Origin: a virus
Length of the DNA stretch: 64,000 bases
Strand: one strand, 5' to 3'
Virus record (IMG/VR): IMGVR_UViG_3300048592_001371
Location: 32,001-96,000 of that record
Part shown: in pieces, positions 13,773 through 43,743 of the stretch
Layout of the letters: each line of letters opens with the position of its first letter
How positions within the stretch are numbered: the stretch's first letter is position 1
Notes under the pieces: generated by a model
Seen by the model: only the letters and a program-made list of their open reading frames with translations
What the model was told of the DNA's origin: nothing
Database searches by the model: none
Made by a program: the position numbers and the translations under genes

Positions 13773-13803
13773 AACGGGGTGGCTTTCCACCCCGTTACCT
13801 TTA
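13773..13803 (+). terminator. Intrinsic terminator-like hairpin
   Basis: Perfect 10-bp stem AACGGGGTGG-cttt-CCACCCCGTT followed by a short T-rich tract. Confidence 0.65.
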
Positions 13804-15905: not shown

Positions 15906-16762
15906 TCATTTGCTCCTTCCCGAGGAGCGGCAGTACGTTGCTTCAACGATTGCTGAACACACATGACGATCTATGCATCTGGGGAGAGAACCTCGGTCTT
16001 CTGACAGCTATGCTAGACCAGATTGCAGCCTTGCGCTGGACGGGAACAGATCCCAAGACAGCGGCCCAAGTCAAACAATCTTCCGAATTTTCTCCGGTCA
16101 GCACTCCCTACACGGCTTTCGATCTGCAAGAAGCGTTCAAGAAACTCCTCGTCGGCTTTTACGCTAGAGGGTTGAAAGAGAATATACGCTGGGGCTACAA
16201 AGACCACAATCACTACTACCCATTCGATCTAATTGAGATCAACAAGATATTCCCCGGGGCTCAGTTCATCGTATTGAGAAGGAACGGTCCAGACTGTTGC
16301 ACGAAAGCTATATTGGCGCCTTGGGTGCGCGAGAAGATAGAAGGCACTCCGAGCCTGTTAGGAGTAGACGTGCGTGCCAGTATGGACAGCTTGGTCTCTT
16401 CCGTCATTCTCACCTATCTGCAATTCAACACCTTCGCTTCGAACGTCTACAAAAACAGAACAGACGTGAGGGTGATTGAGTACGAGGATCTGGTGCGAAG
16501 TCCTGAGCATGTGATCGAGCACTTGTCGCAATTCTTGAATCTACGGCAGGACGGCTGGAATATTGAAGCCTTCGAGACACAGCTATCAACGAAGCTGGGG
16601 AAAACGCCCAGTCAGGGAAGCTATGGCTTCATGACAGAAGAGTTGGTACGGGAGTACGTGGACAAGTGGTGGAGGAAACTGGTAGTAGAGGGCAACGTCG
16701 AACGGCGAGAGCGTGATCTTCGTTGGAACGTTGTGACGGGTAGACACTGGCGCTGGTACTGA
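15875..16762 (+). CDS. Sulfotransferase family protein
   Basis: ICSFPRSGSTLLQRLLNTH...GE, RWGYK, FPGAQFIVLRRN and IEYEDLV motifs. Confidence 0.85.
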   Translation: MGHSIDDKPVIICSFPRSGSTLLQRLLNTHDDLCIWGENLGLLTAMLDQIAALRWTGTDPKTAAQVKQSSEFSPVSTPYTAFDLQEAFKKLLVGFYARGLKENIRWGYKDHNHYYPFDLIEINKIFPGAQFIVLRRNGPDCCTKAILAPWVREKIEGTPSLLGVDVRASMDSLVSSVILTYLQFNTFASNVYKNRTDVRVIEYEDLVRSPEHVIEHLSQFLNLRQDGWNIEAFETQLSTKLGKTPSQGSYGFMTEELVREYVDKWWRKLVVEGNVERRERDLRWNVVTGRHWRWY

Positions 16763-16769
16763 GGAAATC

Positions 16770-17189
16770 ATGACTTCTGTTCGTGTATCGCAAGAGAAAC
16801 TGAAAACAGGCTCGCTGGACGTGGCGGAACTGGTTCTGGAAACCCAGCTCGATCTAGCGCGTAGAAACATTACCGCTGCGTACTTCCCAATACGAGAGGA
16901 ACTGGACGAGACATTAGTTCTGCGCGCCATGAACGGAGAACTGGCGGCTGTTCTCGTTTGGCGAAAGTATGTCGACTCTATCTGGATCATCATAGCAGCC
17001 GTGAAGGATGGCTTCCGAGGGCAAGGACTGCATCAACTGCTGCATCAAGAACTGGACAAGGTAGCGCGCCAACTTGGCATCGGCGTCATTGAGACGTATG
17101 TCGGGACAGAGAACAAATCAGTGCTGCGGTCCTACGAAAAGATGGGTATTACGCCACAGATGTACTACATCAAGAAAAAGGTGCCGTAA
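16770..17189 (+). CDS. GNAT acetyltransferase 1
   Basis: AVKDGFRGQGLH acetyl-CoA motif and ENKSVLRSYEKMG. Confidence 0.85.
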   Translation: MTSVRVSQEKLKTGSLDVAELVLETQLDLARRNITAAYFPIREELDETLVLRAMNGELAAVLVWRKYVDSIWIIIAAVKDGFRGQGLHQLLHQELDKVARQLGIGVIETYVGTENKSVLRSYEKMGITPQMYYIKKKVP

Positions 17190-18655
17190 TGCTGTTGGAG
17201 AACGTCGATCTGTTGCTCATTTCGGATTGCTACGAAACTCCGTATGTAAGGTATAGCGGCCCCTACGTCCTCGCTTCCTACCTTCGCAGGCATGGTCTGA
17301 GAGTGCAGGTAGTAGACTACTTTTCCCGCTTCACAGATACCGAGATAGAAACCATAGTAGACGTGTGCGTTGGCTCCAATACCAAGGCGGTAGGAGTATC
17401 GGATACATTCTCCGGCAAGCCCTTGCATGAGCTCGCAGATGGATCGACCTATGGTTGGCCCTTCTTCGAGAGGCATGACAGGATACGTCGCTTCATCGGC
17501 AATGTCAAGCGCAAGAATCCGAAAACGCGACTGTTGATGGGTGGGCAAAAGACCACTCAAGGACTAAGCGCCGGGTACATAGACACATACTTCCATGGGT
17601 TCGCCGAACAGTCACTTCTCGCTTATCTACAAAGCGAAGGACATGAAGTTCCACGTGTCGTCAAAGAAGCCACCATCCCGAATTGGAAAGACATCCCAAC
17701 CATTCATCACGAGTCCGACAACATCCTCGAAGGAGAAACGCTGCCGTTAGAAGTGTCTCGTGGCTGTATCTTCAACTGCAAATTCTGCTCATACCCCCGT
17801 CGAAATGCCAAGGACTTGAACTACATAAAGTCGGAGGAAGCTATCTACCAGCAGCTTCTGCACAACTATGAGCAATATGGCACTACCTGTTACACGCTAC
17901 TGGACGATACGCACAACGATTCGAAAGCCAAACTCGAAACCATTCGGAACGTTCTAGATCGTCTGCCGTTCAGCATCGAATTTGCTACCTATCTGCGGCT
18001 CGATCTGATAGCCAAAGATATGTCCACCGCGGAGTTGCTCATACGAAATGGACTACGTGGAGCCTTCTTCGGAATAGAGACACTACACAAGGAAGCGGGA
18101 CGACTCGTTGGAAAAGGCCTAGAGCCTGACGAAACGAGAAAGGCGCTGCGAAAATTACGGGAGTTGTGGGGAAACGAAGTAGGAACGCAAGGTGCTTTCA
18201 TCCTAGGCTTGCCGAAACAGCCAGAAGCTGATGTGATACTGATGTGCGAAGAGGTCTGCGACCCTTCCTTCCCGTTACATGGCCCAATATTCTTTCCGTT
18301 GATCATGTATCCAGGCAGGACAAATCCCTCACCGTTCGAGAAAAATCCGTCCCTATACGGGATACGCTTGGAGGAAGGGGATCGGCACGGGTATTGGCAT
18401 AATAGTGAAACCGGCATGGACTTCGAACGCGCGATAGAGATTCAAAACGAATACACGACGCGCATCTACCGCAATCACAGACGCCAATGTGGAGGTTTCT
18501 TGCCCATCATGGCAGTTAATCTAGGTATCAAAGCGCGGGACTTAATCGGCATGCCCGCGAGGGTCGCTCATAAGAAGTACAATATGCAGTCGAGGGAGTC
18601 TCCCTATTTGGCAAAGTACAAAGCAAAGGTTCTGGGAACAACGGAGGGGCAATGA
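17189..18655 (+). CDS. B12-binding (class B-like) radical SAM enzyme 1
   Basis: N-terminal GPYVLASYLR..G..V.VVD, SRGCIFNCKFC cluster motif, FFGIETL and FILGLP. Confidence 0.9.
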   Translation: MLLENVDLLLISDCYETPYVRYSGPYVLASYLRRHGLRVQVVDYFSRFTDTEIETIVDVCVGSNTKAVGVSDTFSGKPLHELADGSTYGWPFFERHDRIRRFIGNVKRKNPKTRLLMGGQKTTQGLSAGYIDTYFHGFAEQSLLAYLQSEGHEVPRVVKEATIPNWKDIPTIHHESDNILEGETLPLEVSRGCIFNCKFCSYPRRNAKDLNYIKSEEAIYQQLLHNYEQYGTTCYTLLDDTHNDSKAKLETIRNVLDRLPFSIEFATYLRLDLIAKDMSTAELLIRNGLRGAFFGIETLHKEAGRLVGKGLEPDETRKALRKLRELWGNEVGTQGAFILGLPKQPEADVILMCEEVCDPSFPLHGPIFFPLIMYPGRTNPSPFEKNPSLYGIRLEEGDRHGYWHNSETGMDFERAIEIQNEYTTRIYRNHRRQCGGFLPIMAVNLGIKARDLIGMPARVAHKKYNMQSRESPYLAKYKAKVLGTTEGQ

Positions 18656-19074
18656 AGGTAACATTCAGGACGGAGAAGGTATTTGAGTTGAACAACGAGG
18701 TCATAAAATTCATACTGTTGTCCTATGTCGAACTCCTGGATAGAAGTTTGTCCGGTATGGGAATTCCCTTCGCGAATACCGACGACGTTCTCATGGCTAC
18801 GAACGAAAAAGGGGACTTGACCGGCTGTATTGTGCTGAGGAAAACGAACGACGCCATCCCTACCTACTGGGTGATCCTAACGGCTGTGAAGCAAGAGTTC
18901 CGTGGTAAGGGACTGCATAAGCAAATGCACAGTCGCCTAGATGCGATTGCTCGGGCCAACGGCATCCAGTACATCTCATCCTACGTCTCTCCGAACAACA
19001 AGGAAAGCTTGAGGGCGTATGAGAAATTCGGCGCAGAACAGTCTATGATAAAGATCAACCGGAAGGTCTCGTAA
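18652..19074 (+). CDS. GNAT acetyltransferase 2
   Basis: AVKQEFRGKGLH and NNKESLRAYEKFG. Confidence 0.85.
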   Translation: MKVTFRTEKVFELNNEVIKFILLSYVELLDRSLSGMGIPFANTDDVLMATNEKGDLTGCIVLRKTNDAIPTYWVILTAVKQEFRGKGLHKQMHSRLDAIARANGIQYISSYVSPNNKESLRAYEKFGAEQSMIKINRKVS

Positions 19075-20540
19075 TGCTGTTAGAGAACGTCGACTTGCTA
19101 ATCGTTAGCGATTTCGCCAATCCCATCTACAAGTCACGCTACAGCGGTCCATACGTTCTCGCCTCCTACCTTCGCAGATTGGGTCTGCGCGTTCAGATAG
19201 TTGATTACATCTCCGAATTCTCGGACGAACAACTGCGGGATATCGTAGACGTTTGTGTCGGGAAGAATACCAAGGCCGTTGGCATTTCTGACACCTTCAG
19301 TTACTTCCAGACACACATGAACGCCAATCGAGTGAATGAGTTCACGATAGCGGGTTGGCCTTTCCTACGAGAGGAGCGGATCAAGGCCTTTGTCGCTAGA
19401 ATCAAGGGTATCAACCCCGATACGCAGATCATCATGGGTGGTGCTAAGTCGACGCGCTTCGATCAACCCGTTCCCTACGTAGACGTTCTATTCAGAGGAT
19501 TTTCCGAAGCGTCCCTAGCAAAGTATCTGATGTCCCGTCACCTGGGTTTGAACAGTTCGTCCTTCGTCGAGGAGCTTCCGATAGATGATTGGATAGACAC
19601 GGTCACTCATATGAGTCCGGAAGACAACCCCTTGGTCAACGAAACCGTTCCTTTGGAAATCTCCCGCGGATGCATATTCAACTGTAAATACTGTTCATAC
19701 CCACGTAAGGGAGCGAAGGACTTCGATTACATCAAGACGGAGGAATCGCTCTACCAAACGCTCTTTACGAACTACTCGGAGTTCGGCATTCGTCGCTACA
19801 TGCTGACGGATGATACGCACAACGATTCGATGTTCAAGCTTGAGCGCTTGCATCGCGTCACTCAACGGCTTCCCTTCAAGATCGAGTATAGCTCGTACAT
19901 CCGAGTCGACTTGCTTCACCGCTATCCTGAGATGATAGACCTGTTGAAAGAGATAGGTCTGAAAGGAGCGATGATGGGGATAGAAACCTTGAATTGGGAA
20001 ACGGGCAAGATAATCGGCAAAGGATTGCAGCCTAAGAAAACGATTGAAACGCTCCAGCTCTTACGTGAGAAGTGGGGCGACACGATCGGTACCCAAGGTA
20101 TGTTCATTCTTGGTTTGCCGCGCCAATCATACAAGGATGCTATCGCGATGTGTGAACGCATAAGCGCAGAAGACTTCCCATTGCATGAGGCACTATTCTT
20201 CCCTCTGTATTTCTTGACCCAGGCTCGCGTCAAGTCGGCTTTCGATATGGACTACGAAAGTTTCGGGTACAAGGTAGAGGGAAAAACGTGGGTCAACGAT
20301 CAAGGGATGACGTCCGAACAGGCAACAAAGCTGGCTAGGTATTACACGAACAAGAACAGAAAGAGCGGGCGTGAGAAGTTCGGTGGCAATCTGCCATTAC
20401 AGCTAGCCAATAGCGGATATGTCGTCGACGACTTGATAGGGAAACCGTTGGGCTCGTTTTTCGAGTCTGAGGAAGCAAAGGGACGCACTACTGAATATGT
20501 GCGTCGATACAAACGAAAACTTTTTGACGTAGAGGAATGA
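19074..20540 (+). CDS. B12-binding radical SAM enzyme 2
   Basis: SRGCIFNCKYC; paralogue of 17189. Confidence 0.9.
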   Translation: MLLENVDLLIVSDFANPIYKSRYSGPYVLASYLRRLGLRVQIVDYISEFSDEQLRDIVDVCVGKNTKAVGISDTFSYFQTHMNANRVNEFTIAGWPFLREERIKAFVARIKGINPDTQIIMGGAKSTRFDQPVPYVDVLFRGFSEASLAKYLMSRHLGLNSSSFVEELPIDDWIDTVTHMSPEDNPLVNETVPLEISRGCIFNCKYCSYPRKGAKDFDYIKTEESLYQTLFTNYSEFGIRRYMLTDDTHNDSMFKLERLHRVTQRLPFKIEYSSYIRVDLLHRYPEMIDLLKEIGLKGAMMGIETLNWETGKIIGKGLQPKKTIETLQLLREKWGDTIGTQGMFILGLPRQSYKDAIAMCERISAEDFPLHEALFFPLYFLTQARVKSAFDMDYESFGYKVEGKTWVNDQGMTSEQATKLARYYTNKNRKSGREKFGGNLPLQLANSGYVVDDLIGKPLGSFFESEEAKGRTTEYVRRYKRKLFDVEE

Positions 20541-20541
20541 C

Positions 20542-20976
20542 ATGGAACTAAAAATCCATAGTATTTCCATCATGCGCGTGTCAAACGATGTGCTGTCATT
20601 CATCCTTCGTACAATGGCCGATTTGGTAGAGGACGGACACTCGGGAAGAGGAATCGCTGTTACCAATGCGGACCACGTAGTCGTAGCAAGGCGTTCTGAC
20701 AATGGCGAACTCGTAGGAGTGCTTGTCTACGTAATAAATAGGCCGAAGGATTTGCTGTGGGTAAATCACGCCGCCGTCAAAGAGCAATATCGCGGACAGG
20801 GGATACATCGAAAGATGCATGCGATGCTCAAAGACATCGCCCGAAAGGAGAATGTCTACGAAGTTGGTTCCTACGTCTCTATTGAAAACAGGGCGAGTGT
20901 AGGGGCGCACAGCAAACGACCCGGCGTCAAGTTCCCAATGATGCGAGTATCCGTGCCCGTTACAGAGGACAAGTAA
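20542..20976 (+). CDS. GNAT acetyltransferase 3
   Basis: AVKEQYRGQGIH and ENRAS. Confidence 0.85.
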   Translation: MELKIHSISIMRVSNDVLSFILRTMADLVEDGHSGRGIAVTNADHVVVARRSDNGELVGVLVYVINRPKDLLWVNHAAVKEQYRGQGIHRKMHAMLKDIARKENVYEVGSYVSIENRASVGAHSKRPGVKFPMMRVSVPVTEDK

Positions 20977-21602
20977 TGAAACAATTCCGACGATTTTGGT
21001 TCTGCGTTGATCTACGCGACAATACTGTGCTGTATCTGGAGCACGACTTCGGTCACAATCAGCCTCCTGGAATAGACCCGGAGGCAAACGTCTTCCCTCT
21101 TGCGGGTATGTTCCCGACCGATTTTACACCGGCGACGTGTGCGAAATTCGAGTACGTCGATGGGGCACAAGTAGCATTGAAGAAGGAGAAGCTAACCCAG
21201 CGCCAAAGTCTGTTGCGCCAAAAATACGTAGCTTTGGCAAAGATCATGAAAGTGGTCTACTGGGGCAGAACGAAGGTCAACAAAGGTTGGCTGCAGCAGG
21301 ACGCCGTCTACAAAATGAAGTTGGACGCGGCTGTTGCCTATCTCAACAAAGAAGAGAATCCTCCGGGCCTAGCAATGCTGCAACATGAAGCCGATTTGCG
21401 GAAAACGACCGTCTATGCGATGGCGAAAGCAATAACCATCGCGGCGCAGGATAACGAGCGCATCCTGATCGACACGGAGAACTTTCGTCAGGAGTGGACT
21501 CAAAAAATCCGAGCTTGCTCAAGTCTGCTAGAGCTGCAGCAAGTGATGGATACTCTCCGCAGCGAAAGCTACATTCCGGTCACTATGGGGTTCCTGCAAT
21601 GA
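20976..21602 (+). CDS. Tail-fibre-assembly-like protein (paralogue 2)
   Basis: QDAVYKMKLDAA...MLQHEADLR...AKAI...TENFRQ motif. Confidence 0.65.
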   Translation: MKQFRRFWFCVDLRDNTVLYLEHDFGHNQPPGIDPEANVFPLAGMFPTDFTPATCAKFEYVDGAQVALKKEKLTQRQSLLRQKYVALAKIMKVVYWGRTKVNKGWLQQDAVYKMKLDAAVAYLNKEENPPGLAMLQHEADLRKTTVYAMAKAITIAAQDNERILIDTENFRQEWTQKIRACSSLLELQQVMDTLRSESYIPVTMGFLQ

Positions 21603-22621
21603 AATTCCTCGTCTTCCAACCAATGCCGAATACGGCGCACAAAGGACTGGCCCAGACACAGGTGGTGATAGGGAACTGCAATTCTCCGATCTCTCGTCTG
21701 AACCGATTCAAGACAGGGGACGTGCTCGATTACAAGTGCGTCTACCCAATCTTGGATTTGCGGACGGATATCAAAATGGCGGATCCGTTCGCCGAGTTCG
21801 ACGCGGCAATGTTGGCCGCGGCCGGTCGTATTCGAGACTTCTCCGAGAAGAACAATGTTCCTGTTCACGTGATGTGGAGCGGCGGTCTAGACAGCACCTG
21901 TGCCTTGGTAGCCCTTGTTCGGGCTGGCGTCCGACCGGTTGTGTTCTTGCATGGATATTCGATCCACGAGAACCCAACAATGTTCTACCAATTCGTCAAG
22001 GACTACGAAGTAGCACACGTCCGAGACACGGACAGGCTGTTCTCCGGGGCCGTTGTTATGGGTGAAGCCGGGGATCAACTCTTTGGTTCGGACATGATGA
22101 TCAAAATGCACAGGCGAGACCTGTTCGCTCCGAATTGGAAGGACTCGATCATCAACAATCTGAAAGAACGCGGACGCAGTCTTCTGGATACATTCTTGCC
22201 TATAGTGGATGAATGTCCACGACAGATCGAGTGTGCGGCCGATTTCTTTTGGTGGTGGAACTTCTCGCAGAAGTCTCAAGCGGTAGCTCTGCGCTACTTG
22301 ATAAACGCGAAGGATCCGGCGGACGCGGCCACGCGCTGGAGCCCTATCTTCATGGACAAGCAAATCCAGGAATGGTCGTTGAACGCACCGAGAGAGGCAA
22401 AGATCGATCCAAGCGTTGGCGTACCTAGCTACAAGCTGGCCATTCGTCGGTTCATTTCCAAGTACGCCAGCCCAGATTATGTACTGCCTTCGAAGATAGG
22501 TAGTTTGTATCGGACAATGATCATCTCGCAGCACAAACACCCCGCACTCGATGAGAACTATAACAAGGTGTCTGCGCTCGATGTCGACAAGCAACTACAC
22601 GTGAATTGGAGCTTCGCCTAA
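21599..22621 (+). CDS. Asparagine-synthetase-like PP-loop ligase lacking the glutaminase domain
   Basis: VMWSGGLDST and GEAGDQLFG motifs; ATGA-coupled start at 21599. Confidence 0.8.
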   Translation: MKFLVFQPMPNTAHKGLAQTQVVIGNCNSPISRLNRFKTGDVLDYKCVYPILDLRTDIKMADPFAEFDAAMLAAAGRIRDFSEKNNVPVHVMWSGGLDSTCALVALVRAGVRPVVFLHGYSIHENPTMFYQFVKDYEVAHVRDTDRLFSGAVVMGEAGDQLFGSDMMIKMHRRDLFAPNWKDSIINNLKERGRSLLDTFLPIVDECPRQIECAADFFWWWNFSQKSQAVALRYLINAKDPADAATRWSPIFMDKQIQEWSLNAPREAKIDPSVGVPSYKLAIRRFISKYASPDYVLPSKIGSLYRTMIISQHKHPALDENYNKVSALDVDKQLHVNWSFA

Positions 22622-24078
22622 TGCTGTTGGAGAACGTTGATCTACTGATCCTTAATGAGTTCTCTGATCCGTACTTCAAAGTGAGGTACTCGGGACCTTA
22701 CGTGCTTGCTTCGTACCTGCGTAATCGAGGATACCGTGTTCAAATACTCGACTATGTTTCGCATTTCACGGATGCTCAGTTGGTAAAGGCGCTACGAGTA
22801 TGCGTCGGCCCGAAAACGTTGGCTGTTGGCCTAGCCGGAACCTTCACGGTTTCCTTGAAGGCGACGTATTCGGCCAAGGATACGCCGGAGGCACGTACTG
22901 GATGGCCACTATGTCAGCCACGGCGCATCGACTTGTTCCTCGACACTGTACGGTCTATCAACCCAGAGACAAAGATCATCATGGGTGGGCATAGACACGG
23001 GTATGACTACCCGAGAGACGTGGACACCCTGTTCTTGGGGTTTTCCGAGGTATCTCTGTTCAATTACCTCGAGACTCTAAGAATAAACAACAGCTGGGTT
23101 CCCAAAGTCGTCCAGGAAGAAAAGCAAGAGGGTTGGAACAGAGACGTTTTTCTGTACTCGGAGGAGGACAACATCCTTCCCGGCGAGACGCTGCCTCTTG
23201 AGATTTCTCGCGGTTGTATTTTCAACTGCAAGTATTGCACGTATCCAAGACGCGGGGCGAAGGATTTCACCTACGTCAAAGACGAGGATGTGATACGTAC
23301 TCAACTGTCACACAACTATGACAAGTTCGGGGTTCTGAATTACACGCTGACGGATGACACACACAACGACACTGAAGAAAAACTGAAACGTCTCATTCGT
23401 GTTCAGAAGGAGTTGGGCATTCAAATACGCTATTCGGCGTATGCTCGTCTGGACCTCATTCATACCTTCCCACACACCGCGGACCTTCTATTCCAGGCCG
23501 GTATGCGTGGTCCCATGTTTGGCATCGAGACGCTGAATTGGGAAGCCGGGAAGATGATTGGCAAGGGCTTGCACCCAGACAAAGTCCGTGCGACATTGCA
23601 CCGACTACGCGCAGAATGGGGAGACGAAGTAGGCACGGAGGGGATGTTCATTCTCGGCTTGCCTAAGCAAAGTCGGTTAGACATGGTACGAATGGCCAAG
23701 GAACTGATGGATCCTTCGTTCCCTTTGCATTACGTGATTTTCTACGCCCTGATCATACAACCGTTGAAGGAAGACTCGGCCTTCAATCGAGAACCCGAGA
23801 AGTTTGGGTACGATACTTCAGTCAAAGCGGCGGGGAACTGGGTACGTGATGATGGTTTTACTGCTGACGAAGCGCGGCAGATGCAAATACTCTATACCAA
23901 TCAGATGATCGAGACGCAGCGAAACAAGTTTGGTGGTGTTCTACCGTTCTTGGTATCGAACGGTGGACGCTCTCTGCAAAGCATGATTGGAAAGCCATTG
24001 GAGTTGTCGCAGCGTGATTACATTGACGCGACACGCTACATGGAACGTTATCTAGCCAAGGTGTTTTCGGAGGACTAA
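22621..24078 (+). CDS. B12-binding radical SAM enzyme 3
   Basis: MLLENVDLL start as in paralogues 1 and 2; SRGCIFNCKYC. Confidence 0.9.
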   Translation: MLLENVDLLILNEFSDPYFKVRYSGPYVLASYLRNRGYRVQILDYVSHFTDAQLVKALRVCVGPKTLAVGLAGTFTVSLKATYSAKDTPEARTGWPLCQPRRIDLFLDTVRSINPETKIIMGGHRHGYDYPRDVDTLFLGFSEVSLFNYLETLRINNSWVPKVVQEEKQEGWNRDVFLYSEEDNILPGETLPLEISRGCIFNCKYCTYPRRGAKDFTYVKDEDVIRTQLSHNYDKFGVLNYTLTDDTHNDTEEKLKRLIRVQKELGIQIRYSAYARLDLIHTFPHTADLLFQAGMRGPMFGIETLNWEAGKMIGKGLHPDKVRATLHRLRAEWGDEVGTEGMFILGLPKQSRLDMVRMAKELMDPSFPLHYVIFYALIIQPLKEDSAFNREPEKFGYDTSVKAAGNWVRDDGFTADEARQMQILYTNQMIETQRNKFGGVLPFLVSNGGRSLQSMIGKPLELSQRDYIDATRYMERYLAKVFSED

Positions 24079-24942
24079 ATGTATTGGAACAGGTTGTTTG
24101 ACGACGTGGTTGACTTCACCCAGCATCGGTATTACTCACAGTTCGAGAATCTGAAATCCACGAACCCGCAGAATTTTCGCTGCGACCCACTAGCCCCGAG
24201 TCCTGTTCTTTTCTTGGGTTCCTGTGACATGGGTGGTCCTGTCAATAACGCAGACGAAGTGTGGCCGCGACGCGTGTATAGAAAACTATGTGAGTCGCAG
24301 GGGCGGTTCCCGTACATGGCTTTGTCCAAGATCAGCTCTGGACTAGAAGCCACGTTGCGTCGACTGTACATCTACTGCGAACTCGTAGGTCCGCCGAAAG
24401 TGCTCTATATGGTCATGCCTCGGCCAGTAAGCATTGAAATTCCTGTGAAGCGGTCGATGACAGATCCTCTCGTTGGAGTAACGGACATAGAGCGATACTT
24501 GACGTTCCTCGGCAAACTCCCAACAATCACAACCGAAGAGGTGTTCCTCTTCAAGAAGATTTCTGAGGTACTGATCGGTTTGTCTGAGAATGAGTCGTAC
24601 CAACTGTACCAGTTTGAAAAAGGGACCGCCTTCTTGCAGACGCTCTGTCGTTTGCACAATATCGAGTTACGCTGGACGCCCAATCTTAGTGCCACTGCCA
24701 TAGAGTACTACGCCAAATACTTTTCTCTGTTCCTGAGGGAGAATGATTTCATGCGGCAGACGTGTCTGGGTGTTGGCAAGGCTCTGGATTTCTCAGGCGA
24801 CGGATCTGTGGGCGACGAGACACAGGGCGTTATCGCTAATCTGATGCTGGATGGCAAACCCGGTGAATTTTCTCTAGACGCAACAAAGAAGCAGCTGGTC
24901 GAGAACTTGGAATTCAAACGCACAACCCTGGAGGAAAAATGA
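24079..24942 (+). CDS. Hypothetical protein, possibly a degenerate SGNH-hydrolase-like fold
   Basis: VLFLGSCDMGG...VWP...ALSKISSG...P.VLY.VMP resembles SGNH blocks I-III. Confidence 0.45.
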   Translation: MYWNRLFDDVVDFTQHRYYSQFENLKSTNPQNFRCDPLAPSPVLFLGSCDMGGPVNNADEVWPRRVYRKLCESQGRFPYMALSKISSGLEATLRRLYIYCELVGPPKVLYMVMPRPVSIEIPVKRSMTDPLVGVTDIERYLTFLGKLPTITTEEVFLFKKISEVLIGLSENESYQLYQFEKGTAFLQTLCRLHNIELRWTPNLSATAIEYYAKYFSLFLRENDFMRQTCLGVGKALDFSGDGSVGDETQGVIANLMLDGKPGEFSLDATKKQLVENLEFKRTTLEEK

Positions 24943-25547
24943 TACCACTACACGTAGCAAATCTCAATACACGGGACTATGTCCATGGCACGTCTATCAT
25001 GACAGGGCTGACGCGCTTCCTACTAGAAAATCACGATACCGTAACGGAATTCACCTTCCGTCTGTACAAGAAGCTCCTGACTTTGCCGCTACTGAGCATT
25101 ACCGAGAAACAGGTCGACAATCCAAAGGACTACGTCGCTACGGGTTCCTTCATGGGAAACGGCTCGCAATGGTTCTTCCAAATTCAGCCTTCAGTCCTTC
25201 CCGTGGAGCACGTTCTGCACATTGACGAGTCCGCTCTAGTAAATAGGATAGAACTGAGAGGAGACAGGTACGTCATAGACGTTGAAGAAAAAGACGACGT
25301 CTTTGTCACCTGGAATGCCATATCAAAGACGCACAACCTGAGAGTGTTCAGCGAGCTCGGCGTGACAAAGCCGGGTGGCCAGACATGGCTAACAGGACAA
25401 ACATTCAAAGACTTGTCCTTCTTGAGAACTCGGCCTGCGACATTGGGAAATTCGGTCGCGTTTCAGAGACTGTCCGAGCGCTGTATCAAACATGACATGT
25501 ACTACGACGAGGCAATAGTCGGAGACAAGACTATAGTCTATGCCTAA
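24939..25547 (+). CDS. Hypothetical protein (RDYVHGT motif)
   Basis: GGAGG RBS and ATGA overlap; function unknown. Confidence 0.6.
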   Translation: MIPLHVANLNTRDYVHGTSIMTGLTRFLLENHDTVTEFTFRLYKKLLTLPLLSITEKQVDNPKDYVATGSFMGNGSQWFFQIQPSVLPVEHVLHIDESALVNRIELRGDRYVIDVEEKDDVFVTWNAISKTHNLRVFSELGVTKPGGQTWLTGQTFKDLSFLRTRPATLGNSVAFQRLSERCIKHDMYYDEAIVGDKTIVYA

Positions 25548-25556
25548 GGGGACATA

Positions 25557-26165
25557 ATGCTGCAACTTGCTATCGATGTGACGGATGGTACGGTCATATA
25601 TGCCTTACCGGATGCGTACCGAATCTGCATGCCCAAATTGCGGACATGGATAGAAAACATCATACTCGATGTTCGGCTTCCCAAGGATTTCCCGATACGC
25701 GCATTAGGTTCACAGAATTTTGTCCGTATAGGGCTGGAAATTCAACGACGGGTGGATAGCGTCCCGGAAGCAGCTATGCTTCTGAATCTGAAATACCACT
25801 CCGTGGACAAAGTGAACATGCTGGTTAATGGACATCGCTTTGCAACGATGAACAAGTTGCTGTTGCAACCACGAGTGTACGAGCTAAAAATAGCGGAGGC
25901 TGAAGCCGTATTGAAGTCGGGCTCCAGTTTGGAGCCCGTAGAAAACGCGCCTATGCTGATAGAGGAAGCAAAAGCGCGGGGCCTATCTGTACGAGATGTT
26001 GCCAAGACTGTTCTACTGGCCAGAGACGATCAGGACGACATGCTGAAAAGGACGGAAGGTATGCGAATATCCGCCACTATTCGCATCTCCGAGGCAAAAA
26101 CACCGCAAGAGGTTTTCGAGATAATGTCGGGCTTCGAGGAAAGTTTCCACAACCGAGGCCTATGA
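25557..26165 (+). CDS. Tail-fibre-assembly-like protein (paralogue 3)
   Basis: QPRVYELKIAEA...PMLIEEAKARGLSV...AKTV...TEGMR. Confidence 0.65.
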   Translation: MLQLAIDVTDGTVIYALPDAYRICMPKLRTWIENIILDVRLPKDFPIRALGSQNFVRIGLEIQRRVDSVPEAAMLLNLKYHSVDKVNMLVNGHRFATMNKLLLQPRVYELKIAEAEAVLKSGSSLEPVENAPMLIEEAKARGLSVRDVAKTVLLARDDQDDMLKRTEGMRISATIRISEAKTPQEVFEIMSGFEESFHNRGL

Positions 26166-27169
26166 TGAGACCGTTGATCTACATAGGTACTCCTAGATAT
26201 CGAAACAGGGTTTTGCGTACTCTGTACCAAGTTCTGCATATCGACGTACCGATGTCTCGTTGTGCTTATCAGGAGTGCAACGTCGTCCCAGTCAGTCATG
26301 CTTTCCCTTTGATGTCCGAACATCGAATAGCGCCGTGTGCCCAGCCGCTTTATGAATTAGAACGCTTGGTCCTAGACAGGGCGACACAGCTTGTGTCGGA
26401 ATCGTCTCAGACGGGAAGGCCCATTTGCGTTAAATACTCCGGTGGTCTGGATAGTATGTTGGCACTCCTGGCCTTCGAACGAATTTCCGCAGAATACAAA
26501 GTCTTCCTGACGCCCAACTCCATCAAAGAAAATCCCACCGTCTTCAAAAAGTTCATTGCCCATCGTGAGTATTTTCACGCGAACGACCCTTCTGTCTTTG
26601 ACGGGCTCGTGATAACAGGAGACGGAGGGGATGCTCTATTTCTAGACGCTATCGTTAAAGGGCCGCAGATGAGGCATGGCGATGCGGTATTGGACTGGGA
26701 CTGGAAAGACGGTTTCGTGAAGGGTATGTGGGGCACGCCAGAAGAGAACAAGTTTGTCTTGGGACTACTAGAGCCGGCGATGCACGATTGTCCCTGGCCA
26801 GTGAAGACGGTTCGGGACTTCTTCGCTTGGACTGGCCTAGCGATCTTCTACCAACCGGAAGTATTGCGTTGGCTTCCTACACTACAGGATCCAAAGAAGA
26901 ACTGGCCTTGGGTCCGGCCGTTCTTTGCAACGAAGGAATTCGTGGAGTGGTCTCTTGGGCAAGAGCCGAAAATCAAGTATCCAAGTACGTCTGACTACAA
27001 ACCAACATTCCGAAAACTGTGTGAGAAATTTTCGGGACTGGATCTATCGGACATGAGGAAAGACTTCTCGCTAGGTAAGACGAGGGGTGCTGCTCCTATG
27101 GTGGTAGGCGTGATGGAAGACTTGACACACGTCACCACCGAAGGAATCGAAAAACTGGTAAAGGAATGA
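26162..27169 (+). CDS. Asparagine-synthetase-like PP-loop ligase
   Basis: VKYSGGLDS and GDGGDALF motifs. Confidence 0.8.
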   Translation: MMRPLIYIGTPRYRNRVLRTLYQVLHIDVPMSRCAYQECNVVPVSHAFPLMSEHRIAPCAQPLYELERLVLDRATQLVSESSQTGRPICVKYSGGLDSMLALLAFERISAEYKVFLTPNSIKENPTVFKKFIAHREYFHANDPSVFDGLVITGDGGDALFLDAIVKGPQMRHGDAVLDWDWKDGFVKGMWGTPEENKFVLGLLEPAMHDCPWPVKTVRDFFAWTGLAIFYQPEVLRWLPTLQDPKKNWPWVRPFFATKEFVEWSLGQEPKIKYPSTSDYKPTFRKLCEKFSGLDLSDMRKDFSLGKTRGAAPMVVGVMEDLTHVTTEGIEKLVKE

Positions 27170-27801
27170 ATATGGGCGCTCCGAATCTCTATCAACTCGC
27201 GGTTGATACACACGACAATACCATCATCTATGCGATGCCGGAAAGTTATCGGTTGTCCCTGCCAGATTTGAGAACCTGGGTGGAGAACAAACTGTTCTAC
27301 GGAAGCTTGCCTGAAGGCTTTCCAATACGCAATCTGGATAGTCAAAAGTTTGTGCTATCTGAGGGAAAGGTCCTAGCACGGAAGGACGAGGTTCGGGAAG
27401 GTGTCGCTTTGCTGAACGTGAAGTATTGGGCGATCGATCAGGTTCTAATGATCATCAACGGACAACGCTTCGCGGTAACAAACAAGCTGTTGATGCAGGA
27501 TAGGATATACGAGGCAAAGGTCGAGGAAGCGCGTCTGATTCTGGCAAGACAAGACGAGGAGCTCAGGAAGTCACACTTTGAGACATCTTGTCCTATGCTG
27601 TATGCTGAGTCCGAGGACAAAGGACTGAGTCTAAACGTCGTAGCAAAAACAGTGATGGTAGCATACGAAGAACAAATGTCTCGCTTGAAGAAAACGGAGA
27701 TCATGCGAATGGCGATAACGAACAAAATCGCCAATGCCGAGACAGAGGAACAAGTTCGGGCTCTGTTGAAGGACGTCAAACTCTATTTCTACACGAGATG
27801 A
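27166..27801 (+). CDS. Tail-fibre-assembly-like protein (paralogue 4)
   Basis: Close paralogue of 25557 (NG.RFA..NKLL.Q.R.YE.K..EA). Confidence 0.65.
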   Translation: MNMGAPNLYQLAVDTHDNTIIYAMPESYRLSLPDLRTWVENKLFYGSLPEGFPIRNLDSQKFVLSEGKVLARKDEVREGVALLNVKYWAIDQVLMIINGQRFAVTNKLLMQDRIYEAKVEEARLILARQDEELRKSHFETSCPMLYAESEDKGLSLNVVAKTVMVAYEEQMSRLKKTEIMRMAITNKIANAETEEQVRALLKDVKLYFYTR

Positions 27802-28805
27802 AACTCCTCAGCTACCACAACAATCCGATGTTCAAGAACAGGACGTTGAATACATTCTTCAACGTGCTCAACGTCGAGGCACCTATGTCTAGGTGTTCTT
27901 ACCAAGGATGCAATGTCCTACCTGTTCATCACTTGTTGCCTCCAATGTCGGAGTATGCAATACGTGTCGTTTCGCAGCCGGGTGCCGAGCTGGAGACGAT
28001 AGTCGAAGCAAGGGTGCGCGAGCTGGTCAACGAAGCACGCCAATTTGATCTGCCAATTCACCTCAAGTACTCTGGTGGTTTGGACAGCCTGCTCGTGCTG
28101 CTCATGTTACATAGGTGTGACGCGGATTTCGTTGTCTATCTGACTCCCGATTCCATCAAAGAGAACCAAGACGTATTCAAGAGATATGTCTCGAACCGAG
28201 ATTTCAAACACGTCAATTGTCCTAGTCTGTTCGACGGACTGATAATTTCAGGAGACGGGGCCGATGCTCTGTTCATAGACATGCTGGCAACAAGCGTAGT
28301 TTCCAAACACGGAGAGACGTCCTTGGATTGGAAATGGGAAGAAGGCTTTGTGAAAGGCATGTACGGAACGGAACAAGAGAACAACGAAGTGCTCGAATTG
28401 CTCTTTCCCGCTCTCGACGAATGTCCTTGGGAGGTAGAGACAGTTCGGGACTTCTTCGCTTGGACTGGCCTAGCGATCTTCTACCAGCACGAGACGTATC
28501 GTTGGCTTCCGACCATGCCTAATCCGGCAGAGAATTTCGCGCGCTTCCGACCGTTCTTTCCAACGAAGGATTTCGTCGAATGGTCTTTGGGACAGGAAAC
28601 GAAGGCCAAGTTTCCGAGCTTCACCGATTACAAACCGGCATTTAGGAAGCTGTGCGAAAAGCTAACGGGTCTTGACTTTTCCTACATGCGGAAAGACTTT
28701 TCGCTGTGGAAGACCGTAGCAGGTAATCGTCTGCATCCCGGTGTCAAAGATGATCTCTCGATTGCAACTATCGAAGAAATAGAACAGGCCGCTATCTATC
28801 CATGA
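27798..28805 (+). CDS. Asparagine-synthetase-like PP-loop ligase
   Basis: LKYSGGLDS and GDGADALF; tandem paralogue of 26162 with the same 335-aa length. Confidence 0.8.
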   Translation: MKLLSYHNNPMFKNRTLNTFFNVLNVEAPMSRCSYQGCNVLPVHHLLPPMSEYAIRVVSQPGAELETIVEARVRELVNEARQFDLPIHLKYSGGLDSLLVLLMLHRCDADFVVYLTPDSIKENQDVFKRYVSNRDFKHVNCPSLFDGLIISGDGADALFIDMLATSVVSKHGETSLDWKWEEGFVKGMYGTEQENNEVLELLFPALDECPWEVETVRDFFAWTGLAIFYQHETYRWLPTMPNPAENFARFRPFFPTKDFVEWSLGQETKAKFPSFTDYKPAFRKLCEKLTGLDFSYMRKDFSLWKTVAGNRLHPGVKDDLSIATIEEIEQAAIYP

Positions 28806-29908
28806 CCGCAAATCTTCTCGATATGTACAAGCCCTTCGTCGAGGACTATCAAGGACCGTGTCTTGTCATCGACCGGGCCTCGATTTTCGAGCGCATAAAA
28901 CGCTTCCTTCGCGCGGTGCCGAACGTCCTCCCGTATTATGCAATGAAGGCGAACCCGCATCCCGGTGTTCTACAGACGGTTTCGGACGCGGGTATAAACT
29001 TTGACGTTGCCTCGGCAGACGAGATTCTCTTGCTGGAGCGTACTGGTCTGAACGTGCGTCATGTGCTGTTCAGCAATCCTGTCAAGAAACCAAGCGACAT
29101 CGCTTACGCAGCTTGGAATGGCATTCAGAACTATGCAATAGATAGCCAAGAGGAAATGTTCAAGATACTGTCTATCGTGCCGCACGCCAAGATGTACGTT
29201 CGTTTGTCTTTGCCACCCAGCACCGCGGATTCCCCACTCAATGACAAATTCGGTATTGACTTGTATGAGCTAGAAGGCCTGCTCCGGATAGCTAAAACGG
29301 TCAAGGCGGACATCTGTGGAGTAACATTCCACGTTGGCTCTCAATGTCGCTATCTCGACAGTTGGGGAGACGCTATAGGAATTGCTCTCAAAGCCGGCGA
29401 GATGCTTCTGCGCGAAGGCTTTCGGTTCGAGTTGCTCAACCTGGGTGGCGGCTTTCCCGTTTCCTACACGCGTCCAATACCTGAGATCGAAGACATTGGT
29501 CTGGTGCTGGATAGGCTGTTGCAAGATCTGCCGAAAGAAACACGAGTGGTTGCCGAGCCGGGACGACACCTGGTTGCGGAATCAGGCATGCTGATCTGCC
29601 AAGTAATAGCAACCTCTACGAGGAAGGGTACTCGTTGGGCCTACTTGGATGTCGGTACATACAACGGATTGGTAGAAACGATCCAAGGCGTTGAGTGTAA
29701 TTTCTGCTATACGCAAGAAGGCGACACGGATCTTTGGAATGTAGCGGGTCCAACGTGTGATTCAAACGACATCATGTCTAAGAGGGTCCGTCTACCCCGG
29801 AATCTGGCAACTGGAGATTTTCTCTATGTGCCGAATGCCGGGGCCTATTCGGTAGCCAGTGCAAGTACATTCTGCGGAGCACACATTCCGGAGGTTATCC
29901 TATTGTGA
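28802..29908 (+). CDS. Type III PLP-dependent ornithine/lysine decarboxylase
   Basis: YAMKAN (PLP lysine), FDVAS, DKFG, FHVGSQ, LNLGGGF, AEPGR, GPTCDSND and GAY motifs. Confidence 0.92.
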   Translation: MTANLLDMYKPFVEDYQGPCLVIDRASIFERIKRFLRAVPNVLPYYAMKANPHPGVLQTVSDAGINFDVASADEILLLERTGLNVRHVLFSNPVKKPSDIAYAAWNGIQNYAIDSQEEMFKILSIVPHAKMYVRLSLPPSTADSPLNDKFGIDLYELEGLLRIAKTVKADICGVTFHVGSQCRYLDSWGDAIGIALKAGEMLLREGFRFELLNLGGGFPVSYTRPIPEIEDIGLVLDRLLQDLPKETRVVAEPGRHLVAESGMLICQVIATSTRKGTRWAYLDVGTYNGLVETIQGVECNFCYTQEGDTDLWNVAGPTCDSNDIMSKRVRLPRNLATGDFLYVPNAGAYSVASASTFCGAHIPEVILL

Positions 29909-30429
29909 ATCATGGACGCGTACTGTGGCTGACAGGTTTGAGTGGGTCGGGCAAGACCACTCTGGCTTGGGCACTTGACGAATTCCTACAACGCAAAGGA
30001 ATTGCTACTTCTGTCATCGACGGAGACGAGATACGCAAAACCCTGTGTAAGGATCTGGGGTATACGGCGGAGGACAGAACAGAGAACCAGCGGCGCATCG
30101 CAGGACTGGCGAGAAAACAAGCCGATCTCGACCTCACAGTAATCGTGGCCACCATCAGCCCGAGATTCAAACATCGGGTACTGGCCGAAGAGATAATCCA
30201 CCCGATCGACTTCTACGAAATCTACCTAGCCACTCCCCTCGAAGAATGCGAGAGGCGCGATCCGAAAGGGATGTACGCCAAAGCCAGAAGAGGGGAGATC
30301 AGTGCCTTCACCGGAGTTACCGATCCGTATGAGGAACCCGAACACCCCGATGTGAAAATCCCTCCGTCTTTCTCCCTCCGAGAAGCACTTCAAGCAATCG
30401 AACGGTCTGTCCGTTTCACGATTCTCTAG
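29905..30429 (+). CDS. cysC: Adenylyl-sulfate (APS) kinase
   Basis: LWLTGLSGSGKTT, DGDEIR..L..DLGY...DR.EN..R, RDPKGMY.KA..GEI..FTG..DPYE.P. Confidence 0.95.
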   Translation: MNHGRVLWLTGLSGSGKTTLAWALDEFLQRKGIATSVIDGDEIRKTLCKDLGYTAEDRTENQRRIAGLARKQADLDLTVIVATISPRFKHRVLAEEIIHPIDFYEIYLATPLEECERRDPKGMYAKARRGEISAFTGVTDPYEEPEHPDVKIPPSFSLREALQAIERSVRFTIL

Positions 30430-30450
30430 TCTCTCACTAATTTCCCTTTG

Positions 30451-30536
30451 CGTTGCATTGAGTCTCCATTCACCACCCCTCCTCCTCTTGGTGTGGTTTT
30501 AAGGCCGGCCGGACTTTGTCTTACCGGCCTTCTTTC
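30451..30536 (+). ncRNA. Candidate small RNA with a CCUCCUCC loop and terminator
   Basis: Follows CTAATTT; hairpin CACC-CCTCCTCCTCTT-GGTG, then an AAGGCCGG/CCGGCCTT stem with a T-rich tail. Confidence 0.35.
30501..30536 (+). terminator. Intrinsic terminator closing the enzyme cluster
   Basis: AAGGCCGG (30501-8) pairs with CCGGCCTT (30524-31), followed by CTTTCT. Confidence 0.6.
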
Positions 30537-30552
30537 TGCTGTCCGTTCCGGA

Positions 30553-30566
30553 ACAATAATTTAAGA
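30553..30566 (+). promoter_or_regulatory. Putative phage late promoter ACAATAATTTAAGA
   Basis: Identical to 8794-8807. Confidence 0.55.
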
Positions 30567-30605
30567 CTGTAGAGCAAAATCCCATTTTTGGTAGAAAGGA
30601 CCGAT

Positions 30606-31001
30606 ATGCTCAAGGGTATACTCGAGACACTAACGCCGCCCCAAGTGAAGATAGCTATCTTCGGGTTGCTGTCTTTGGCAATGATTGGCCTGTTGCTTGG
30701 CGTGTACTTCTACGGACGACACGACGGAGCAGCGGCCAACGAAGTGAAGTGGCAGAAATGGCAAGCGGAATACTTCGAAGAACTGAAGGAGAAGATCGAA
30801 GGTGTGCAAAAGTACGCTTCCGAACAAACGGCCGAAGTCAAGAAGGGAACCGCGTCCACGAACGCACGAGTGAATACCGTGCTTGAAGAAATTCGCAAGA
30901 AGGGACCGACGGTAATCTACGACGCGGAGAAAAAGGCCTGCGAATTCAAACCCGGGTTTCAGTTGAACTGGTCAACCATCAATAAGGAGGCCAACAAATG
31001 A
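30606..31001 (+). CDS. Inner-membrane spanin (Rz-like)
   Basis: Single N-terminal TM helix followed by a helical periplasmic region; overlaps a downstream lipoprotein gene. Confidence 0.7.
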   Translation: MLKGILETLTPPQVKIAIFGLLSLAMIGLLLGVYFYGRHDGAAANEVKWQKWQAEYFEELKEKIEGVQKYASEQTAEVKKGTASTNARVNTVLEEIRKKGPTVIYDAEKKACEFKPGFQLNWSTINKEANK

Positions 31002-43728: not shown

Positions 43729-43743
43729 CGTCAGGAGACAGAC

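Follow-up and report, generated by a model that had tools for sequence, protein, structure and literature searches.

Three glutaminase-less, asparagine-synthetase-like ligases in a 20-gene phage block with radical SAM, acetyltransferase, sulfation and decarboxylase genes

The window analysed here is a 64,000-nucleotide (nt) stretch of viral DNA (IMG/VR record IMGVR_UViG_3300048592_001371, bases 32001-96000 of 123,553), in which three paralogous ligases of 335-340 amino acids (aa) are encoded within an operon of 20 tightly packed, translationally coupled genes at 13815-30429. According to a predicted structure, these ligases are "mini-AsnB" proteins, that is, the synthetase half of asparagine synthetase B alone, and by analogy with enzymes of the AsnB family they very probably make amide bonds via carboxylate adenylation. 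The block as a whole is probably one multi-step tailoring pathway. Our overall reading, in which the amide-forming ligases act within one such pathway and a protein is a somewhat likelier target than a metabolite, is tentative and falls short of probable. The original prediction for this DNA, made by a model from the letters alone, had covered 21599-29908, which spans just the 3' half of the operon.

All three ligases carry the two motifs named in the original prediction, SGGLDS and G(D/E)xxDxLF. Ligase A, read as 340 aa from the ATG at 21599 (the longest open reading frame (ORF) starts from a GTG at 21494), has SGGLDS at residue 94 and GEAGDQLF at 155; ligases B and C, of 335 aa each, have SGGLDS at 93 and 92, followed by GDGGDALF at 153 and GDGADALF at 152, respectively. 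The second acidic motif of AsnB, SGEGSDE(I/V)FGGY, occupies the same position as the G(D/E)xxDxLF of the ligases. The N-termini (MKFLVF, MMRPLI, and MKLLSY) all lack Cys2, the approximately 90 residues before the PP-loop leave no space for an N-terminal nucleophile (Ntn) glutaminase domain of about 200 aa, and a regular-expression scan over the translations showed CxxCxxC to be absent from the four PP-loop proteins of the block, including the more distant PP0; the predicted absence of both a glutaminase domain and the cysteine motif thus holds on every count. Ligases B and C share 55-56% identity with each other and 27-28% with ligase A, a paralogy that puts the shared motifs well beyond coincidence. 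None of the three matched PF00733 in Pfam or the asparagine-synthase models of NCBIfam, and phmmer against the PDB sequences gave no match either. Searching PHROGs returned weak, PP-loop-level matches to QueC-like and PAPS-reductase families for ligase A only, a word-indexed protein search returned the window's own proteins only, and a profile of the ligase family aligned with PDB sequences over the PP-loop alone.

The fold was assessed on an AlphaFold model of ligase B, which was built from a 125-row alignment (pLDDT 94.2, pTM 0.92) and replaced a version made from the three paralogues alone (pLDDT 48.1). Among 48,161 PDB representative chains, the five best structural matches of this model all belong to the AsnB family:

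TsnB9, 7ylz: Z 14.0, root-mean-square deviation (rmsd) 4.5 A, 254 aligned residues
Beta-lactam synthetase, 1jgt: Z 12.6, rmsd 5.8 A, 224 aligned residues
Human ASNS, 9b6c: Z 12.2, rmsd 3.6 A, 206 aligned residues
Carbapenam synthetase, 1q15: Z 10.9, rmsd 4.6 A, 222 aligned residues
E. coli AsnB, 1ct9: Z 10.3, rmsd 5.5 A, 225 aligned residues

The next fold follows at Z 6.4 (APS reductase, FAD synthase, GMP synthetase, and others), while TilS reaches Z 4.0-4.9 and QueC (3bl5) Z 3.8. A second comparison, made over Foldseek's 1000 best chains, placed 12 AsnB-family entries on top (Z 11.0-14.0) before the same drop to 6.4, and Foldseek's own ranking put ASNS and AsnB first (E about 4e-4). The assignment of a glutaminase-less AsnB-type synthetase domain is therefore borne out by the Z scores of 10.3-14.0 against 6.4 for the next fold, and the distinction from QueC is supported by its low Z score together with the absence of a PF06508 match and of the zinc-binding Cys motif in the ligases.

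In the proposed reaction, ATP would bind at the SGGLDS PP-loop, the carboxylate of the substrate would be adenylated, and an amine would displace AMP to leave an amide; because there is no glutaminase, the amine would come from solution or from the substrate itself. AsnB and ASNS (1ct9, 9b6c, 8sue, 6gq3) resemble the ligases in fold (about 205-225 aligned residues, Z 10.3-12.7) and in the SGGxDS motif, but they are about 550 aa rather than about 335 aa long, they have the Ntn domain and Cys2 that the ligases lack, and the similarity is too low for a PF00733 match. The best structural matches are the hydroxyamidotransferase TsnB9 (7ylz, Z 14.0), beta-lactam synthetase (1jgt/1mbz, Z 12.6-13.1), and the carbapenam synthetase CarA (1q15/1q19, Z 10.9-11.9), in which the same fold accepts nucleophiles beyond glutamine-derived ammonia. 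These enzymes differ in retaining a full-length, partly vestigial N-terminal domain, whereas the phage ligases have about 60 residues before the core, and they serve bacterial antibiotic clusters that make defined small molecules. Lasso-peptide cyclases of the McjC type are AsnB-family enzymes of about 500-600 aa that activate an Asp or Glu side chain of their peptide by adenylation and then join it in an isopeptide bond, and they provide a precedent for a protein or peptide carboxylate as the substrate. No solved lasso cyclase chain surfaced in the structure searches with the ligase model; neither a leader peptidase, a RiPP recognition element (RRE), nor a precursor was found in the block as a Pfam or NCBIfam domain, remote versions being possible, and no gap exceeds 9 nt to hold a small ORF. 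QueC, another PP-loop ATPase, likewise activates a carboxylate by adenylation before amide formation with ammonia, and the phage does encode QueD and QueE.

The ligases belong to a family that looks large, escapes Pfam and NCBIfam, and is mostly viral where its members can be placed. An exhaustive profile search, counted at the 50% identity clustering level, yielded 1199 cluster representatives at E<=1e-3, 644 at 1e-10, and 10 at 1e-30. The 125-row alignment combines the three window proteins with 122 of 150 listed matches, leaving out the window's own two records, rows far from about 300-400 aa, and rows matched in two stretches. S93, G94, G95, D97, S98, and K280 are invariant in all 125 rows and present in all three copies; a weak Asn_synthase match was obtained in six rows (best E 0.0023) and a weak PP-loop match in five. 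At the 39 columns that are at least 80% conserved, ligase A, the nearest of the three to the family consensus, keeps the consensus residue at 33, and ligases B and C keep it at 23, with the changes clustered in the second motif and in a W-W-x-N-F-x-x-K-W helix. Judged from these columns, ligases B and C keep the ATP-binding and adenylation core and probably have a changed substrate pocket. A FastTree phylogeny (358 columns, LG+gamma, midpoint root) groups two metagenomic proteins, P0004 and P0005, with ligases A, B, and C in a clade of five (support 0.998), in which B and C are sisters (1.0); since all three share this one small clade, the copies arose by duplication in this lineage. In the ESM Atlas, the clusters neighbouring the ligases are 89-93% viral, and the best matches among predicted viral structures (TM 0.75-0.81) come from uncultured Caudovirales; these proteins are uncharacterised, and some of them bear the label asparagine synthase. 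A pattern scan over one genome for each of 185,579 prokaryote species gave 69 pattern matches, none of which was confirmed, within the limits of the two patterns used. The 18 longer family members showed weak PP-loop-type matches only, with no sugar-enzyme domain. PP0, which lacks the G(D/E)xxDxLF motif, matches the mini-AsnB family with an hhalign probability of 96.6% (E 5e-10, 192 columns) and QueC weakly (PF06508, 15.5-15.9 bits against a cut-off of 22); on this alignment, it belongs to the PP-loop lineage of the ligases as a remote member. A full-text literature search, which covers journals outside subscription, found no paper describing the mini-AsnB family or the cluster, and the main text of a jumbo-phage survey (PMC7824862) makes no mention of PP-loop, asparagine synthetase, sulfotransferase, radical SAM, or APS kinase.

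The operon runs through 19 junctions with gaps of -31 to +9 nt, 15 of which are overlaps. It begins 57 nt past the last gene of a fibre operon and is followed by a 158-nt gap. The genes of the block and the two features immediately before it are as follows, with aa lengths where needed; the starts at 13815 and 15447 were chosen by the analyst from the translations.

13108-13758, + strand: fourth partner paralogue, closing the fibre operon ahead of the hairpin (hidden Markov model (HMM) of the three partners, E 1.9e-11)
13773-13796, + strand: terminator-like hairpin between fibre operon and block, 10-bp stem with seven G-C pairs (consensus scan only)
13815-14543, + strand: 242 aa protein, first gene of the block, from the first ATG past the hairpin (no Pfam or PHROG match)
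14536-15450, + strand: PP0, distant PP-loop ATPase, 304 aa, SGGYDS (hhalign to the mini-AsnB family)
15447-15905, + strand: 152 aa protein, from the ATG overlapping the PP0 stop (no family match)
15875-16762, + strand: sulfotransferase of the 3'-phosphoadenosine-5'-phosphosulfate (PAPS) type (PF13469, 77 bits against a cut-off of 27)
16770-17189, + strand: GNAT acetyltransferase 1 (PF00583, 30.6 bits against a cut-off of 20.7)
17189-18655, + strand: class-B-like (B12-type) radical S-adenosylmethionine (SAM) enzyme 1 (PF04055, 49 bits; CxxxCxxC at residue 193)
18652-19074, + strand: GNAT acetyltransferase 2 (PF00583, 42.8 bits)
19074-20540, + strand: radical SAM enzyme 2 (PF04055, 59.5 bits; CxxxCxxC at residue 200)
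20542-20976, + strand: GNAT acetyltransferase 3 (PF00583, 37.3 bits)
20976-21602, + strand: partner protein A, 208 aa (phrog_21671, E 2.7e-7; paralogue alignment)
21599-22621, + strand: mini-AsnB ligase A (motifs; nearness to the family consensus)
22606-24078, + strand: radical SAM enzyme 3 (PF04055, 51.5 bits; B12-binding domain 16.5 bits, below the cut-off of 32.1; CxxxCxxC at residue 204)
24079-24942, + strand: 287 aa protein (no family match)
24939-25547, + strand: 202 aa protein, not detectably a cupin (hhalign probability 0.1% against a cupin alignment)
25557-26165, + strand: partner protein B, 202 aa (phrog_21671, E 1.8e-4)
26162-27169, + strand: mini-AsnB ligase B, the modelled copy (motifs, model)
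27166-27801, + strand: partner protein C, 211 aa (phrog_21671, E 2.8e-4)
27798-28805, + strand: mini-AsnB ligase C (motifs; 56% identical to B)
28802-29908, + strand: pyridoxal-phosphate (PLP)-dependent, alanine-racemase-fold enzyme of the ornithine/lysine decarboxylase type, 368 aa (PF02784, 169.1 bits; PF00278, 63.6 bits)
29905-30429, + strand: adenosine 5'-phosphosulfate (APS) kinase, CysC (TIGR00455, 186 bits against 138.7; PF01583, 185.5 bits)

Terminator-like sites of the kind seen at 13773-13796 are not enriched in this region (23 found, 17.9 expected). Within the block, the three ligases, three radical SAM enzymes, three GNATs, and the partners (four with the paralogue before the hairpin) are interleaved rather than sorted by type. 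The sulfotransferase and its PAPS source, the APS kinase, whose gene is the sole PAPS-making one, sit at opposite ends of the block, 13 kb apart, and chiefly on this ground we infer that the block, including the decarboxylase, acts as one unit. No second copy of the cluster was found in 19 viral, 7 metagenome, or 79 radical-SAM loci, and megablast of 21000-31000 as well as tblastn with ligase B and radical SAM enzyme 2 gave no match among 50,697 phage records. Single-protein queries in viral contigs found no close relatives of the sulfotransferase or the decarboxylase.

Pairwise identities among the three radical SAM enzymes are 45-48% (47-48% between enzyme 2 and the others), and all three contain CxxxCxxC, while PF02310 was detected in only one of them and below its cut-off. 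Their best NCBIfam matches, all far below threshold, are PhpK, ladderane-lipid, HpnJ, and BzaD families and C-methyltransferases of ribosomally synthesized and post-translationally modified peptides (RiPPs); for enzyme 1, the PhpK family scored 67.5 bits against a cut-off of 600. The GNATs, whose presence near the ligases had been correctly predicted, are 31-38% identical to one another, and the best solved relatives of GNAT 2 are YycN and the diaminobutyrate acetyltransferase EctA (E 7e-5 to 4e-4). An Elp3-like reading of the GNAT/radical SAM pairs was set aside, since the phage enzymes have an N-terminal B12-type region of about 190 aa, which Elp3 is not known to have; GNAT-like neighbours occur in just 5 of 79 related radical-SAM loci, 8.5 kb off and on the opposite strand. 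The best solved relative of the sulfotransferase is protein-tyrosine sulfotransferase 1 (TPST1), aligned over residues 7-229.

The decarboxylase, called an ornithine decarboxylase in the original prediction, is of the ornithine/lysine type, with both of its Pfam domains well above their cut-offs. Its best solved relative is mouse ornithine decarboxylase (ODC; E 2.2e-52), with the YAMKAN segment carrying the PLP Lys and the GPTCD motif aligned. It is followed by

Vibrio lysine/ornithine decarboxylase (E 2.4e-48)
Chlorovirus arginine decarboxylase (ADC; E 2e-37)
Diaminopimelate decarboxylases (E 5e-30 or worse)
BtrK (E 3e-25)
N-citrylornithine decarboxylase (E 6e-15)

and the lysA model stays at 170.6 bits, below its cut-off of 297.9. 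The nearest proteins are 42-46% identical, about 390 aa long, and named ornithine decarboxylase or type III PLP enzyme, the labelled ones coming from Burkholderiales, Nitrosomonas, and metagenome-assembled genomes of Betaproteobacteria; a 61% identical protein of 367 aa is encoded on a contig of 22,954 bases. From these similarities, the enzyme is expected to convert free ornithine or lysine to putrescine or cadaverine. The stop codon of ligase C (28803-28805) overlaps its ATG (28802-28804) in ...ccATGAcc..., a 4-nt overlap at 28802-28805, which confirms the arrangement originally described. This overlap is unspecific, as overlapping junctions are the rule in the operon and throughout the window. 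The further step of the original prediction, that the decarboxylase supplies the amine used by the ligases, was not established, given that overlaps are common in the operon and that the pairing recurs nowhere else; what ties the decarboxylase to the ligases is solely their common membership of the tight block. A polyamine as the nucleophile of the ligases has to be regarded as doubtful. A profile scan found ODC homologues in 16 other viral loci (L111-L126), some in giant-virus bins. Concerning phages, the relevant part of Li et al. 2023 (PMC9992855) reports that no likely ODC homologues were found in phage genomes.

A gene of about 205 aa lies directly 5' of each of ligases A, B, and C, and these partner proteins are paralogues of one another (phrog_21671; 43% identity between B and C). 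Their joint HMM also matches 13108-13758, the gene that closes the fibre operon. In the ESM Atlas, partner C reaches feature scores of 0.92-0.94 with clusters made up mainly of viral proteins, among them one named "tail protein family" (0.92), and it shows weak structural likeness to DUF4376 (TM 0.42/0.46), Caudo_TAP (0.29/0.41), and tail assembly chaperone clusters (0.28/0.37). Based on this modelled likeness, a tail-fibre assembly protein may have been the ancestor of the partners.

Relatives of the ligases were located in 19 viral loci, and their neighbours were examined in 14 of them, leaving out L007, L008, L014, L015, and L017 as near-duplicates or short; 12 of the 14 were put through Pfam, with L016 and L018 omitted as near-copies of L012 and L013. 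In several of these loci, the ligase gene sits among virion genes: between capsid and tail-tube genes (L002, L004), before neck genes (L009), or after an internally repetitive protein of 1296-1370 aa and before adaptor, neck, and sheath-stabiliser genes (L012, L013). A Cupin_2 protein of about 200 aa follows the mini-AsnB gene in 7 of the 12 loci, and BLAST adds L016 and L018 to make nine of 14. The mini-AsnB/Cupin_2 pair thus recurs in virion modules (L002-L005, L010, L012, L013, L016, L018) of both podovirus-like and T4-like uncultured phages; in the window, five candidates compared with the cupin alignment reached hhalign probabilities of at most 0.3%. A different radical SAM gene (phrog_1802) overlaps the start of the mini-AsnB gene in L009, and one lies 1.2 kb upstream in L011. 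The radical SAM family to which the window's enzymes belong was found in 79 viral loci (L021-L099), accompanied by PP0-type genes in 14 of them and by a strong mini-AsnB match in one (L099). Eleven of these loci searched with Pfam contain fatty-acid desaturase (five), Asp/Asn beta-hydroxylase (three), and PhyH (three) genes, as well as TauD, other 2-oxoglutarate (2OG) oxygenases, and TctC/DUF2061, and loci with such neighbours are oxygenase islands of aquatic phages.

Upstream of the ligases, tail-fibre phrog matches are found at 3-2735, 3239-4021, 8831-10978, and 11416-12300, the last with a Pfam tail-collar fibre N-terminus. Collagen-like Gly-X-Y repeats were sought in the window proteins, and just two glycine-rich stretches were found, GGGGGGGGQGFDGGA and GVGGSAGSSGANGGH, both in the tail-fibre/host-specificity protein at 3239-4021. 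The 715 aa fibre protein at 8831-10978 shares with a 145 aa protein at 12623-13060 a C-terminal domain ending in ...DPYAWQAGGG, whose free Gly-Gly-Gly terminus would offer an accessible carboxylate; the 145 aa protein directly precedes the partner-like last gene of the fibre operon.

Several observations make a protein target plausible, i.e., the position of the block directly behind the fibre operon, with a partner paralogue inside that operon, and the embedding of ligase relatives in virion modules. The likeness of the partners to tail-fibre assembly proteins and the TPST1 match of the sulfotransferase, both weak, point the same way. Three paralogues of each enzyme type would also fit a set of related macromolecules as substrates better than a single small molecule. 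On this reading, each partner of about 205 aa would guide its ligase to proteins of the tail fibres or of other parts of the virion, and the decarboxylase would supply putrescine or cadaverine as one candidate amine. A precedent in prediction is found in passages of Iyer et al. 2010 (PMC2938197), which describe bacterial operons in which beta-hydroxylase, PhyH, sulfotransferase, PAPS synthetase, and acetyltransferase were predicted to modify co-encoded tail-collar or collagen-like proteins. The block resembles these operons in having a sulfotransferase, a PAPS-making enzyme, and acetyltransferases beside a tail-collar-type fibre gene (11416-12300), and relatives of its radical SAM and PP0 genes adjoin beta-hydroxylase and PhyH genes. 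The operons, themselves known from computation, differ in being centred on 2OG dioxygenases, which are absent from the phage block; those passages (PMC2938197) mention no AsnB-like ligases or decarboxylases, and radical SAM enzymes appear in two of them, in other neighbourhoods.

A number of results weigh against a protein target or against the pathway as we read it. The TPST1 match has an E value of only 0.002, the best matches of the GNATs are small-molecule enzymes such as EctA, and regions beside fibre genes commonly host accessory genes. The likeness of the partners to tail-fibre assembly proteins is weak (TM 0.26-0.46), and they match no Pfam model at E up to 5, including PF14301, PF02413, and PF16778. 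Their family is nearly confined to this phage, with four matches among 7388 candidates, one of them on a different contig (74,660 bases). The partner HMM matches no upstream protein of the ligase relatives, and the upstream proteins of about 180-240 aa in six relative loci are unalignable, their mean column identity of 35% being due to two near-identical pairs. Ligases B and C depart from the consensus at 16 of the 39 conserved columns, so that their substrate may differ from that of the family. None of the 16 other viral ODC loci holds a mini-AsnB, PP0, or partner gene within 8 kb, and BLAST with the decarboxylase found no homologue in the 19 viral mini-AsnB, 79 radical-SAM, and 7 metagenome loci (0 of 105); the decarboxylase could be an independent polyamine gene. 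Taken together, a protein or fibre target is possible, at less than even confidence. Its most elaborate version is unlikely: in this virion-protein modification factory, adaptors similar to tail-fibre chaperones would bring three or four ligases to the fibres, the ligases would couple locally produced putrescine or cadaverine to carboxylates of Asp/Glu side chains or C-termini, or else cross-link these carboxylates to lysines, and the radical SAM enzymes, acetyltransferases, and tyrosine-type sulfotransferase would add further marks.

A small-molecule pathway would use largely the same enzymes; the ligases would join small acids and amines into a free amide metabolite (derived, for example, from a polyamine or an amino acid) that is C-methylated, N-acetylated, and sulfated, and the partners would be scaffolds or unrelated. 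The closest solved relatives of the ligases (TsnB9, beta-lactam and carbapenam synthetases) are natural-product enzymes, EctA is the best match of the GNATs, the decarboxylase resembles an enzyme of free ornithine, B12-type radical SAM enzymes are typical of secondary metabolism, and DctP/TctC genes occur among the neighbours of relatives. Cyanophage oxygenase arrays were suggested to yield secondary metabolites in a passage of Iyer et al. 2010 (PMC2938197). However, Pfam and NCBIfam searches of the block found no carrier protein, nonribosomal peptide synthetase/polyketide synthase (NRPS/PKS), transporter, or resistance gene, and a crude count over 20-residue windows found no hydrophobic segment in the 21 gene products checked (maximum 15 of 20). 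Triplicated enzyme types with four partner paralogues are also unusual for one metabolite, and the relatives lie inside virion modules of small podovirus-like contigs. We consider this explanation rather unlikely. The possibility that the genes share no pathway at all is less likely still. In that case, the decarboxylase and GNATs would be ordinary polyamine genes for host takeover, raising putrescine levels or acetylating polyamines, the sulfation pair would be separate, the mini-AsnBs would use free ammonia on an unrelated substrate, and the genes would be neighbours simply through dense phage gene packing. The unconserved link between decarboxylase and ligases and the overlapping junctions usual across the window are in line with this, as are two findings of Li et al. 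2023 (PMC9992855), namely stand-alone polyamine enzymes of phages and viruses, including spermidine N-acetyltransferases, and a homospermidine synthase encoded by phiRSL1, a distant relative here. Against it speak the sulfotransferase and its feeding kinase at opposite ends of the block and the interleaving of ligases, radical SAM enzymes, GNATs, and partners.

Glycans and nucleic-acid bases were considered as further targets. Surface-conversion genes often adjoin fibre genes, AsnB-type amidotransferases amidate uronic acids in O-antigens, and polyamine-galacturonic acid amides occur in some lipopolysaccharide cores. Ligases that amidate uronic-acid or other sugar carboxylates of a nucleotide-sugar or polysaccharide, using ammonia, amino acids, or polyamines, with acetylation, methylation, and sulfation on the same glycan, would result in a changed host surface or a glycosylated virion. 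This is very unlikely, as no glycosyltransferase, nucleotidyltransferase, sugar dehydrogenase, flippase, or other membrane protein was found in the 20-gene block (Pfam, NCBIfam, hydrophobicity count), and the longer family members carry no sugar enzyme. Hypermodification of a base, with ammonia or putrescine ligated to a carboxylated base (the candidate being 7-carboxy-7-deazaguanine from QueD and QueE) to yield a new DNA or tRNA modification, and including a replacement of QueC, is highly improbable. The region 42766-48830 does contain QueD-like (43744-44217), phosphoribosyltransferase (47374-48033), and QueE-like (48042-48830) genes among several unannotated ones, no QueC, TGT/DpdA, or FolE was found in the 123.5-kb record (about half of the genome), some PP-loop enzymes modify bases, and putrescinyl-thymine shows that polyamine-modified phage DNA exists. 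But the ligases have an AsnB-type fold, far from QueC and TilS in the structural comparison, the Que genes lie 14 kb off, beyond lysis, topoisomerase, and fibre genes, and small contigs with ligase relatives show no Que genes nearby; as the record is about half of the phage, QueC or DpdA may sit elsewhere. The Que genes themselves could represent a 7-deazapurine pathway that goes no further than the carboxy intermediate or one that relies on salvage through the phosphoribosyltransferase; alternatively, the rest of the pathway could be on the unseen half of the genome.

The record is classed as a provirus with an estimated completeness of 50. Identical proteins were also found on a 207,582-base contig, and the window is therefore considered part of a jumbo phage. 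Nearly all long ORFs of the window are on the + strand, and the block is followed on its 3' side by an Rz-like spanin, DUF5675, a type IB topoisomerase, and further fibre-like genes. The topoisomerase (33398-35074) is of the eukaryotic type, with 27-35% identity to proteins of the jumbo phages phiRSL1, Motura, PaBG, and NCTB; its relatives, in 21 phage records, are all distant (<60% identity), with Phage NCTB, Achromobacter phage Motura, Ralstonia phiRSL1, and Pseudomonas PaBG on top. Elsewhere in the window, two tandem Tad2-like proteins and a Tad6 homologue, of anti-Thoeris families, are encoded at 52705-53811 and 61431-61988, and a ThyX-domain protein of 457 aa (60101-61474), far longer than usual ThyX, adjoins a deoxynucleoside monophosphate (dNMP) kinase (59260-59865).

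Among the contexts seen in this analysis, the phage offers the richest one for mini-AsnB ligases, with three copies and their partners, two genes that suffice for sulfation, and a decarboxylase of the ornithine type. Were a fibre protein the target, the block would represent a new way for a phage to alter or protect its receptor-binding proteins; were it a metabolite, the product would be a natural product made by a phage. Should the ligases indeed attach putrescine or cadaverine to virion proteins, this would amount to an enzymatic "polyaminylation" of the phage receptor-binding apparatus and would give a function to a large, mostly viral family.

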